From a virus (taxonomy: Duplodnaviria > Heunggongvirae > Uroviricota > Caudoviricetes), in IMG/VR virus record IMGVR_UViG_2671180577_000001, positions 1-7,750 of that record: 7,750 nucleotides of DNA, one strand, 5' to 3'. Of the stretch, positions 6,001 to 7,750 are shown in pieces. Position 1 is the stretch's first letter; every line of letters starts with the position of its first letter. The position numbers are program-made.

Positions 6001-7750
6001 ATCGCGCTGTGACGATGCTAATCCCAAACCTTACCCAACCCACCTGGTCACGCACTGTTAAGCCGCTGTATGACGCTCTGGTTGTGCAATGCCACAAGGA
6101 AGAGTCAATCGCAGACAACATTTTGAATGCGATCACACGTTAGCGCCATGATTGCCACGGATGGCAACATATTAACGGCATAATATTGACTTTTTGAATA
6201 ACTTTGGGGAAACTTGACATCAATAATGGGCGTTTTTTACATGTCATTGATGAGTCTCAATAACCTGCCGCCGAGTAGTTTTTATGCTCTGAATTGTATT
6301 TGTGTAGTAAACATGCTGACTGCAATGTAATAGAGTTTTTTTAGCCTGTAACCTCTTGACGGCATTGAATTGCTTTTGTTATGAGTTGTAAGCCAATGTT
6401 ATCATCTTGTATTGGGGTGGTTATGAAGGATGGTGCGCTGCTCAGGAGTTCTTCACTTTTTATTGCCTACATGGGATGCCTTGGATGGGGGAGTGCTTAT
6501 TTCTATGGATGGGGTACTTCTTTTTACTACGGCTTCCCATGGTGGATTGTAGGTGCAGGTGTTGATGATGTTGCCAGAAGTTTATTTTTTGCAGTTATCG
6601 TCATTGCTATATTTCTTATCGGTTGGGGTATTGGTGTTGTATTCTTTTTCGCAGTGAAAAGAAAACATTCTATGCAAGAGCTAAATGTATTTCGCCTTTA
6701 TTTTGCTGTGGAATTATTGTTTGTGCCGGCAATTATTGAGTTTTCTATATTGAGACAGAAGATTCAGGTACCTCTTTTGCTACTGTCAGCAGCGATTGCG
6801 CTGGCGGTTACAATTTCGATAAGATCTTATGGGCGATTTTTATCGGTATCATGCTTCTATGATAAGCCATTTATAAAAAAACATTTTTTTGAGATTGTGA
6901 TGATTGCTTTTGTGGCATATTTCTGGCTTTTTTCATTTCTGACAGGATATTACAAACCACAGTTTAAGAAAGAATATGAAATGATTAATTATAATGATGG
7001 TTGGTATTATGTTCTTGCTCGTTATGATAATTGTCTGGTTTTGTCTACTTCTTTCAATGCAGGTAGTAAAAGGTTTGTCATTTATCAATCAGCACAAGAT
7101 AAGAATCTTCAGGTTGATATTGTAAGGACCAGAATTTAATTGGCTGCATAAATAATATTTTAAGTTGCAAGTTGGCTATTCGTAGGAATAGAACCTTAGG
7201 CATGCTGAATGCGTTTTCTGAACATTGTTTTATAAACTGTGTCTGCTTGCTGTTGTGATCCTGCTTTTAGTGATGGTGATGATGGATTTCACCAGCAGGA
7301 TAATGTTGGTACTGACTGATGGCGCTCTGGTCTGCGGCATTGTGGTATTGCTGTGGCCGATGATGAAAAAACAGAATGAATAATCCTTGACTTTTTTGTT
7401 TACTGTTTATTAAAAAATCAACCGCATGGTGAATCCTCCTTGGAGGGGCTAAATGATCGAGTTTTAAGGGCACGTAGCGAGTTCTGTTTGATCATTGCAG
7501 AACTTAGCGGGAGGCGCCATGCGTACATCACTAATGTTATTTCCTTCTATCATTTTCCTTGTGAGTTCTGGCTGCGCATGGCGCGGCCTTTTTTTTATGA
7601 CCTGCCACTGGCAGATGGCCATCCTGTAATTTGATTCCGGTTCCGGCTTTTTAACTCTGCTCCTGTACACGGGAGAAATTCGATGTCGATTAAACATTAT
7701 GATGTTGTCAGGGCGGCGTCGCCGTCAGACCTTGCGGAAAAGCTGACACA

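Follow-up and report, generated by a model that had tools for sequence, protein, structure and literature searches.

Positions 6186-6230 of the window, the 7,750-nucleotide stretch of viral DNA analysed here, probably form the late promoter PR', with the Q-utilisation site inside it, of a lambda-family Q antitermination cassette, here in a natural allele often found in E. coli prophages. As an element it appears to be of an ordinary kind, and its predicted functional differences from lambda are modest. The features discussed below are the following (plus, the strand shown).

5520-6143, plus: Q antiterminator gene, lambda family, 207 aa (PF03589, E 1.2e-57)
6152-6167, no strand: inverted repeat TTGCCA (6152-6157)-cgga-TGGCAA (6162-6167), between the Q stop and the -35
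6186-6191, plus: PR' -35 hexamer TTGACT, same as lambda; matches the start of the PR' annotated in HK630
6192-6208, plus: 17-bp spacer with Q-binding element (QBE), candidate 13-bp site TTGAATAActTTG at 6194-6206; annotated in HK630 as 'similar to lambda Qut site'
6209-6214, plus: PR' -10 hexamer GAAACT (lambda TAAATT); A-11 and T-7 kept, T-12 lost
6214-6219, plus: -35-like element TTGACA (lambda TTGACT), by alignment, with its role taken from PMC9388147
6222-6230, plus: sigma-dependent pause element AATAAT (6222-6227; lambda AACGAT) and discriminator-like triplet GGG (6228-6230), by alignment
6233-6238, plus: T6 run, putatively covering the expected pause positions +12 to +17 from A6222
6262-6285, plus: intrinsic terminator relic (AACCTGCCGCCGAGTAG-TTTTT), by homology to AAACCCGCTGCCGAGTGGGTTTTTTTT in Q82-family leaders (L127, L128, L197)
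6287-6342, plus: marginal A/U-rich hairpin followed by T7, a weak terminator candidate at best (closed hairpin abutting T7, -7.3 kcal/mol)
6376-6405, plus: candidate moron promoter TTGTTA-18-TGtTATCAT (consensus scan, 9/12 with TG)
6396-7139, plus: membrane-protein moron (ORF), 247 aa from ATG 6396; alternative starts 6381 and 6424
7225-7383, plus: DUF3927 small membrane protein (PF13064, E 1.4e-14)
7394-7599, plus: PasD/STnc100-like sRNA (Rfam RF02076), terminator stem 7570-7588, T8 to 7596
7683-7750, plus: start of a DUF1737/esterase-type late-region gene (PF08410, E 4.9e-4 over 22 aa)

Homology of the PR' region to lambda

Window 6144-6230 aligns with lambda 44510-44595 (NC_001416), a stretch that runs from the Q stop to roughly position +9 of the PR' transcript, with differences in 11 of 87 columns. 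A megablast comparison of window 5900-6230 with lambda returned E = 5e-134, so that the resemblance reflects homology rather than chance. The sequence-only reading had described the region as lambda-like up to shortly after the start site, and this is borne out: it lies directly behind a lambda-family Q gene whose product is identical to lambda Q at 203 of 207 positions (differences L135Q, R138I, V140A and V205I), and the homology stops at window 6230, lambda 44595. The same reading had given TAAATT as the lambda -10, and the alignment, which could have contradicted it, places TAAATT in the very columns occupied here by GAAACT. The PR' and Qut features annotated in HK630 coincide with the PR' coordinates of the window, and the -35 starts 43 bp past the Q stop TAG (6141-6143). 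Q itself matches PF03589 rather than PF06323, which places the window outside the Q82-family cassettes. Substitution rates against lambda (dN 0.008, dS 0.12, dN/dS ~0.07; pS 0.113) point to purifying selection on Q, and carriers of the GAAACT allele have an intact Q ORF with hardly any variation. A tRNA scan of the window found none.

The palindrome that had been reported between Q and the -35 is a perfect inverted repeat located exactly at 6152-6167, but it does not mark the GAAACT allele because the lambda copy, like that of HK630, is base-for-base identical. Relatives with Q identity as low as 58% all have the same core GCCACGGATGGC, but the outer pairs are not kept. The window contains 24 perfect inverted repeats with arms of 6 bp and loops of 3-8 nt, against 11.3 +/- 4.0 in shuffles, and the repeat at 6152-6167 is unexceptional by chance alone. 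In the GenBank and RefSeq records of lambda, the palindrome is not annotated as regulatory.

Promoter hexamers and Q-loading elements

The promoter is laid out as TTGACT-17-GAAACT, with 5/6 matches in the -35 and 3/6 in the -10. GAAACT lies two substitutions away from TAAATT and is the derived state. A G at -12 is absent from all other lambda-family Q cassettes sampled, including those with Q identity of ~40%, and every one of them keeps T-12, leaving the window as the sole case of a non-T at this position. Such invariance implies that T-12 is normally constrained, and the canonical -10 motif TAnnnT includes it (PMC13494017). A consensus promoter scan called the lambda PR' and did not call that of the window. 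Because T-12 is lost, lower basal initiation than at lambda PR' is expected even though the key bases A-11 and T-7 are kept, and a basal PR' weaker than lambda's, as the sequence-only reading had proposed, is plausible. Loading of Q is predicted to be unchanged relative to lambda, every element it needs being present.

A real possibility, though on the unlikely side, is that GAAACT is simply a tolerated drift variant and that PR' is about as active as lambda's, carried by the good -35, the optimal 17-bp spacer, G-14, A-11 and T-7. Divergence over 6144-6230 is about what synonymous sites in Q show, GAAACT still has A-11 and T-7, phage 2B8 is viable with the allele, and A/T-rich -10 variants are able to open quickly (PMC4496709). 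Drift of this kind sits poorly with the constraint on T-12 and with the comparison to the sister lineage L141, which is identical over the 356 nt preceding the -10 and then shows 5 differences in 39 nt.

The two most important -10 bases are A-11 and T-7, both present in GAAACT. Three other arrangements were considered and rejected. If the new TTGACA (6214-6219) served as a -35, the hexamers 17-18 bp downstream would be TTACAT and TACATG, which lack A-11 or T-7. If AATAAT were the true -10, the nearest -35 candidates would be 22 or 30 bp away. Compensation by an extended -10 leaves the alleles equal, G-14 being found in both and T-15 in neither.

A scan of genome contigs returned mostly lambda contamination in unrelated assemblies, with six informative loci. 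Across the conservation survey of 32 distinct haplotypes and six distant relatives, the -35 is TTGAC(T/A), the -35-like element TTGACN and the pause element AAnnAT, with spacings of 1 or 2 bp before the pause element occurring in several lineages. The QBE in this survey follows the pattern TTGAATAA-NN-TTGGG, with variation across the 32 haplotypes confined to the two N positions; the window block, TTGAATAA-ct-TTGGG, differs from lambda at these two positions only. The 13-bp QBE is contacted at positions 1-4 and 11-13 (PMC9388147). The register TTGAATAA-NN-TTG suggested by natural variation would fit these contacts, and the contacted positions are the same in the window as in lambda. The -35-like element is the landing site of the repositioned sigma region 4 in the Q-loading complex (PMC9388147). 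The lambda pause element is AACGAT at +1 to +6 plus GGG, and a consensus pause element raises pausing and arrest (PMC4005639); AATAAT, at 5/6 near-consensus, is closer to consensus than the lambda element. It is preceded by one extra base (TC at 6220-6221 against C in lambda), a 2-bp spacing also found in L008, L113, L027 and L031. The PR' start site is probably A6222. Compared with the pause-site consensus T+14 N+15 Y+16 G+17 (PMC9191641), TTTT at 6235-6238 matches T+14, N and Y and carries a T in place of G+17. Several natural relatives also lack G+17, so it is not strictly defining for a lambda-family cassette. The suggestion that Q might engage differently here is disfavoured: the QBE changes only at freely varying positions, the -35-like and pause elements are present, and the spacing longer by 1 bp recurs in several other lineages.

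By homology to lambda, sigma70 RNA polymerase would initiate near A6222, sigma region 2 would re-bind the -10-like AATAAT and GGG within the first transcribed bases, and the complex would pause ~16-17 nt out, within the T6 run. Q from the adjoining upstream gene would bind TTGAATAA..TTG in the promoter spacer, contact sigma region 4 repositioned on TTGACA and then load onto the polymerase. Polymerase modified in this way would pass the terminators that separate the promoter from the lysis and late genes, the first of them at 7570-7598. Homology to lambda, the preserved elements, the spread of the allele and its occurrence in a viable phage are established; in this scheme we infer the start site, the pause position, the promoter strength and the dependence on Q.

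The arm of Q offers a further reading, in which the substitutions R138I and V140A, adjoining the 133-137 arm tip that touches sigma region 4, form together with the promoter changes a matched specificity pair distinct from lambda's. Among 109 Q and PR' pairs the Q135/I138/A140/I205 form of Q accompanies nearly every GAAACT promoter; residues 133-137 contact sigma region 4 and the arm contacts QBE positions 11-13 (PMC9388147). We consider such co-adaptation very unlikely. No more than 300 bp separates the sites, so that linkage by itself would account for the association; haplotypes of mixed type also occur (IVV next to a lambda-type promoter, R138 next to the variant promoter, variant Q with TAAATT), and the contacted QBE positions are unchanged.

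Leader, terminators and downstream genes

A sensitive search for hairpins followed by T-runs, which recovered lambda tR' as a positive control (-26.6 kcal/mol), found no convincing promoter-proximal terminator in the leader, in agreement with the earlier statement that nothing like lambda tR' follows. The leader yields just two structures, a 4-bp hairpin ahead of T5 at 6279 and the A/U-rich hairpin ahead of T7 at 6336. Past PR', the first strong intrinsic terminator, and the only one downstream, is at 7570-7598, 1.35 kb away and ahead of the DUF1737/lysis region; a counterpart of the lambda-family tR' is thus found only at a distance, with a relic and a marginal hairpin close by. The intact terminator AAACCCGCTGCCGAGTGGGTTTTTTTT folds at -13.3 kcal/mol (z -3.8), whereas the window copy reaches -4.6 kcal/mol and lacks the terminator hairpin. 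Positions 6262-6285 read as the decayed remnant of a terminator whose intact form stands behind a Q82-family Q elsewhere. The stretch of L127 homologous to 6287-6342 forms no similar hairpin.

The candidate moron promoter at 6376-6405 is identical in Q82-type prophages. The moron (GC 31-41%) encodes a protein identical to WP_001302581.1 in O157, O145 and E2348/69, for which no Pfam or NCBIfam match was found. The sRNA aligns with RF02076 over its full length at 37.7 bits, below the gathering threshold of 47 (E 3.6e-6), and its E2348/69 copy overlaps the mapped PasD1. The full DUF1737/esterase-type gene is present in relatives.

With no terminator close to PR', every lysogen would transcribe the moron, DUF3927 and the sRNA region if the promoter were strong and constitutive. 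Selection to limit Q-independent transcription may accordingly have favoured the two -10 substitutions, perhaps with a contribution from the stronger pause element and the T-run; we regard this as unlikely. In lambda and Stx phages PR' fires constitutively and its transcripts normally end at tR' (PMC7547250). A terminator lies within ~+50 to +200 in nearly all other sampled cassettes; in L125 none is apparent within the ~70 nt examined, and the window leader has only the relic. L141 carries the same terminator-less leader and still has TAAATT, which suggests that the leader came first and the -10 change second, and a consensus pause element would bring more pausing and arrest (PMC4005639). The leader-first order, however, depends on a single outgroup contig, and the moron has its own candidate promoter. 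In E2348/69, moreover, the moron level of the PP2 copy, which lies behind an intact terminator, is similar (226 against 147), the PP4 and PP2 counts not being separable because the copies differ at 3/744 nt. A broader version, in which PR' was re-tuned after terminator loss through -10 down-mutations, a near-consensus pause element and a pause-site U-run into a dual-purpose promoter, with R138I and V140A possibly co-adapted, seems to us quite improbable. If such re-tuning did take place, the membrane protein, DUF3927 and the PasD-type sRNA region would, as lysogenic-conversion genes, be transcribed constitutively at a low level without Q, and after induction the same promoter would give full Q-dependent late transcription.

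Distribution of the allele

The GAAACT allele and its leader occur in 572 of 5426 complete E. coli genomes, and 557 records match at >=99% identity. IMG/VR contigs of the allele carry GAAACT in 66 cases and TAAATT in 1, with no single-step intermediates. Lambda_2B8 is the only isolated phage with allele and leader among 50,697 phage records. The study describing it sequenced plaque-purified, amplified phages (PMC6969025), so the allele is compatible with lytic growth; for Q-dependent read-through of the terminators, this phage is the one piece of indirect evidence. A comparative study of pR' in Stx prophages makes no mention of the GAAACT allele. Many carriers are degraded prophages, such as that of O157:H7, which contains IS elements and has its lysis genes truncated, and prevalence alone is therefore no proof of function. 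In EPEC E2348/69 the allele resides in prophage PP4. RNA-seq of this strain finds Q and holin nearly silent (baseMean 6 and 5), implying that the late genes are off without Q.

These carriers bear on a reading in which the allele persists mostly in cryptic prophages free of selection on late transcription, so that GAAACT and the loss of the terminator are erosion. The heavy degradation around the O157:H7 copy, the single isolated phage and the local decay seen in the terminator relic are all in keeping with it. The intact Q ORF, nearly invariant among carriers and with its low dN/dS against lambda, argues otherwise, as do the untouched QBE, -35, -35-like and pause elements, the plaque purification of 2B8 and the intact lysis genes of PP4, and we judge a decaying promoter to be highly doubtful.

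Comparison with known systems

Lambda PR'/qut serves as the textbook model of sigma-dependent pausing and of processive antitermination, and the lambda sequence itself has been used in nearly all studies. The window shares with it the gene order, Q followed by the promoter ~45 bp past the stop, a Q that is 98% identical, the palindrome and -35, a 17-bp spacer, the same QBE contact blocks, TTGACN, and AAnnAT with GGG at the transcript start. It differs in its -10, in the one extra base between TTGACA and the pause element, in the pause element AATAAT itself and in lacking G+17, a 6S-type leader and tR', homology ending at +9. Short-leader late promoters of the lambda family (...AACGATGGATAAATGCACTCG..., terminator at ~+30 to +62; L115, L008 and L027) have the same Q family, QBE and pause layout, and some share the 2-bp TTGACA-TC spacing of the window. 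Unlike the window, they keep TAAATT and a strong promoter-proximal terminator, AAGCCCTGAG...CTCGGGGCTTTTT.

Downstream, the closest counterparts are the Q82-family cassettes (PF06323; L127, L128 and E2348/69 PP2), which possess an identical membrane-protein/DUF3927/sRNA cassette. Their leader is homologous to window 6262-6330, though diverged, and from ~6331 the sequences are identical. These cassettes are unlike the window in having the other Q family, a TTGCAA-17-TATACT promoter and an intact terminator directly behind it. The late region of Stx phages (PR'-tR'-StxS, stx, esterase, lysis genes) likewise places accessory genes and sRNAs between a Q-dependent promoter and the lysis genes, and its PR' is regarded as constitutive (PMC7547250). 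There tR' precedes the accessory genes, whereas the window has no convincing terminator before them. In EPEC and EHEC prophages the allele stands upstream of the moron and the PasD sRNA, and their transcription in lysogens would depend on whether PR' is terminated at that point. The known mechanism is unchanged by these observations, which amount to a modest refinement only. The window holds a known promoter type in a common natural version, with a -10 lacking the first T and no close terminator, and this common E. coli allele serves as a natural test of tolerated change: a GAnnnT -10, 2-bp spacing, a 5/6 pause element and no G+17.

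Identity of the promoter and its predicted Q contacts

The window covers the nin, Q and late-leader region of a lambdoid prophage or phage. The segment just 3' of Q is best read as an ordinary lambda-type PR'/qut that, judged by sequence, would work as in lambda.

Annotated features of the window
5520-6143, + strand: Q antiterminator, lambda family (PF03589, E 1.2e-57)
6396-7383, + strand: moron cassette with a multi-pass membrane protein of 247 aa (RefSeq WP_001302581.1, sometimes named 'STM1630 family')
within 6396-7383, + strand: DUF3927 peptide (family match)
7394-7599, + strand: full-length Rfam match to STnc100 (37.7 bits, below the gathering threshold of 47; E 3.6e-6), ending in the 7570-7598 terminator
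7570-7598, + strand: the one strong intrinsic terminator downstream of PR' in a simple terminator scan (-16.4 kcal/mol, z -2.7)

The window Q is identical to lambda Q at 203 of 207 residues (differences L135Q, R138I, V140A and V205I), and the dN of 0.008 against a dS of 0.12 relative to lambda indicates purifying selection on Q. Three of the four differences fall at codons 135, 138 and 140 (window 5922-5939), in or beside the tip of the zinc-ribbon arm. Q135 is the majority state among relatives, with lambda L135 as the outlier. Directly 3' of the Q stop codon (6141-6143) lambda 44510-44595 aligns, and identification of the region as PR'/qut is supported. The -35 TTGACT (6186-6191), the 17-bp spacer (6192-6208) and the -10 GAAACT (6209-6214, numbered -12 to -7 by the usual convention) lie within the stretch marked by the sequence-only reading, whose coordinates all hold, and coincide with HK630 annotations 'similar to coliphage lambda PR'' and 'similar to lambda Qut site'. 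Alignment also confirms the lambda -10 given in that reading, TAAATT occupying the same columns in lambda and HK630.

For comparison, Q genes with their downstream sequence were taken from IMG/VR (80 loci), species-representative genomes, lambda, HK630, the plaque-purified phage Lambda_2B8 (2B8) and E. coli chromosomes. We tabulated 109 Q-plus-promoter pairs, aligned 32 distinct haplotypes and also read six more distant cassettes with Q identities of 86% down to 38%. The -35 is always TTGAC[T/A] in the sampled lambda-family cassettes, and in the 32-haplotype alignment the spacer is always TTGAATAA-NN-TTGGG, save one CTGGG, varying only at the two N positions (AA, AG, CT, CA, AC). Across cassettes the -35-like element is TTGACN and the pause element AAnnAT (AACGAT, AATGAT, AACAAT, AAGAAT, AATAAT), the spacing to the latter being mostly 1 bp and 2 bp in several independent lineages (loci L008, L113, L027 and L031 and the window allele). 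Crystal and cryo-EM structures define a 13-bp Q-binding element (QBE), in which the helix-turn-helix touches positions 1-4 and the zinc-ribbon arm positions 11-13 (PMC9388147). The spacer pattern suggests a QBE register of TTGA-ATAANN-TTG (window 6194-6206), with the variable pair at the uncontacted positions 9-10. On that register all parts for Q loading appear intact in the window, and its QBE changes would be of a harmless kind.

The altered Q engagement raised by the sequence-only reading is unlikely, and we take Q loading as presumably unchanged. That Q and qut form a co-adapted pair seems improbable. Among the 109 pairs R138I and V140A travel with the GAAACT promoter, and both adjoin residues 133-137, the arm tip in contact with sigma region 4. 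The sites are, however, separated by less than 300 bp, some haplotypes are mixed, and the QBE bases that Q contacts are the same as in lambda. Linkage explains the association more simply.

The GAAACT hexamer and its carriers

On the reading of an ordinary PR'/qut, the -10 is the feature that stands out. Every other haplotype carries TAAATT, cassettes from Yokenella, Pectobacterium and Pseudocitrobacter included, and relatives with ~40% Q identity carry TAATTT. The T at -12 in all other sampled cassettes indicates that this base is normally kept and that GAAACT is derived. GAAACT probably lowers basal initiation, and a weaker promoter, as first proposed, is plausible from the sequence. Neutral drift that left promoter strength unchanged is possible but doubtful.

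An IMG/VR pattern scan allowing G/T at -12 and C/T at -8 returned GAAACT in 66 contigs and TAAATT in a single one, with no single-step intermediates between the two. The sole TAAATT contig (L141) represents a sister lineage ~2-4% diverged overall, with the same leader and Q protein as the window. Over window 5853-6247 the two are identical for the 356 nt that precede the -10 (from the 3' half of Q to the end of the spacer) and then show five differences within 39 nt (6209-6247), over the -10, the start region and +20/+26. The change relative to L141 is a local cluster at the promoter core, noted post hoc and against a single outgroup. The L141 version found no match better than 97.4% in complete E. 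coli genomes.

Of 5426 complete E. coli genomes, 572 carry the allele and its leader (557 records at a minimum of 99% identity); O157:H7, O145 and EPEC E2348/69 are among them. Erosion in cryptic prophages is a very unlikely source of the change. Prophages in decay do occur among the carriers, one being the O157:H7 copy adjoining espW and espM2. The allele is also found in 2B8, from a study whose temperate phages were plaque-purified and amplified before sequencing (PMC6969025), so a phage with this Q and PR' completes lytic growth. The genome contig scan also gave many 98%-identical lambda Q matches (L005-L046) from unrelated organisms (Bacillota, Bradyrhizobium, Streptomyces-like and others), on contigs that are short and of low coverage. 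Lambda DNA contaminating the assemblies, not real prophages, seems to be their source.

The leader, its terminator relic and the moron

The sequence-only reading reported no tR'-like terminator behind PR', and rightly so: near PR' there is a relic instead, and the first real stop is 1.35 kb away. Since the simple scan misses lambda tR', a search for hairpins before T runs was added. It recovered lambda tR' as positive control (-26.6 kcal/mol). In the window leader it found no more than a 4-bp hairpin ahead of T5 at 6279 and, ahead of T7 at 6336, an A/U-rich hairpin of -7.3 kcal/mol. An intact terminator, AAACCCGCTGCCGAGTGGGTTTTTTTT (-13.3 kcal/mol, z -3.8), lies just 3' of a Q82-family Q (PF06323) in prophages with an identical moron, and window 6262-6285 is homologous to it (2479-2508 of L127, one such cassette). 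In the window copy the hairpin and T tract carry three substitutions and a deletion of 4 nt; the copy no longer folds as a terminator, and the segment reads as a terminator relic. Of the other lambda-family cassettes sampled, nearly all carry a terminator between about +50 and +200; in the ~70 nt examined of one cassette (L125), none was apparent. Selected down-tuning of the promoter, tied to this lost terminator, is an unlikely explanation of GAAACT.

Between PR' and the 7570-7598 terminator lies a moron of low GC (31-41%), whose 247-aa membrane protein matches no family in Pfam or NCBIfam. In prophage PP4 of E2348/69, which carries the allele, the published RNA-seq baseMean is 6 for Q and 5 for the holin, and the membrane ORF lying between these two genes reaches 147 (PMC8550237 table S2). 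The near-silence of Q and holin indicates that late genes are off without Q, and the ORF signal that lysogens do transcribe something in the stretch from Q to the ORF. This signal is not assignable to PR': prophage PP2 holds a second copy of the ORF with only 3 differences in 744 nt, and the ORF may have its own promoter (candidate at 6376-6405). The PP4 counterpart of 7394-7599 overlaps the experimentally mapped Hfq-bound sRNA PasD1 (see also bioRxiv 10.64898/2026.05.13.724894), whose EHEC homologue is EcOnc13, and 7394-7599 is very probably a PasD-type sRNA gene.

Two unrelated Q families precede the moron cassette, which is the same in both settings, and EPEC lysogens transcribe it while their Q and holin stay silent. 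In an O157:H7 prophage (L128 116-187) a 72-nt lambda-type Q stump precedes lpxR, ylcG and a full-length Q82-family Q, a visible trace of one Q module replaced by another. A 29-codon ORF, MSLMSLNNLPPSSFYALNCICVVNMLTAM, in the PR' leader (6241-6333, + strand) lacks an obvious ribosome-binding site and probably has no significance.

Comparison with lambda PR'

The palindrome noted 3' of Q (TTGCCA 6152-6157, cgga, TGGCAA 6162-6167) is real and correctly placed, but it is not specific to the allele, being base for base the same in lambda. As a bare 6-bp repeat it is not unusual, since the window holds 24 perfect 6-bp inverted repeats against 11.3 +/- 4.0 in shuffles. Among relatives (L027, L030, L031) the core GCCACGGATGGC stays invariant even at 58% Q identity; the flanks diverge, and no compensating changes accompany the loss of the outer pairs. 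At the same position, relatives with 40% Q identity (L033, L034, L040) carry a longer inverted repeat of another sequence, AAATAGCTCA...TGAGCTATTT, which overlaps their -35. Core conservation may reflect some function shared across the family; its pattern gives no evidence for an RNA hairpin or protein site, and lambda records carry no annotation of the palindrome.

Relative to lambda PR', the window differs by A to T at -28, AA to CT at -19/-18, T to G at -12 and T to C at -8. The -35-like element (6214-6219) is TTGACA where lambda has TTGACT, one extra base precedes the pause element (TC at 6220-6221, lambda C), and the pause element itself (6222-6227) is AATAAT in place of AACGAT. In lambda, AACGAT spans +1 to +6 and acts with a GGG discriminator-like triplet (PMC4005639), which the window shares (6228-6230). 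By analogy the start site is probably A6222. The early loss of lambda similarity that had been described falls at 6230, some nine bases into the transcript; unrelated sequence follows, first CG and then a T6 run (6233-6238). Lambda matches the stable scrunched pause consensus T+14 N Y+16 G+17 perfectly (PMC9191641), whereas the window has TTTT at the equivalent positions and so lacks G+17. The allele adds a natural version to a kind of element that is already very well known.
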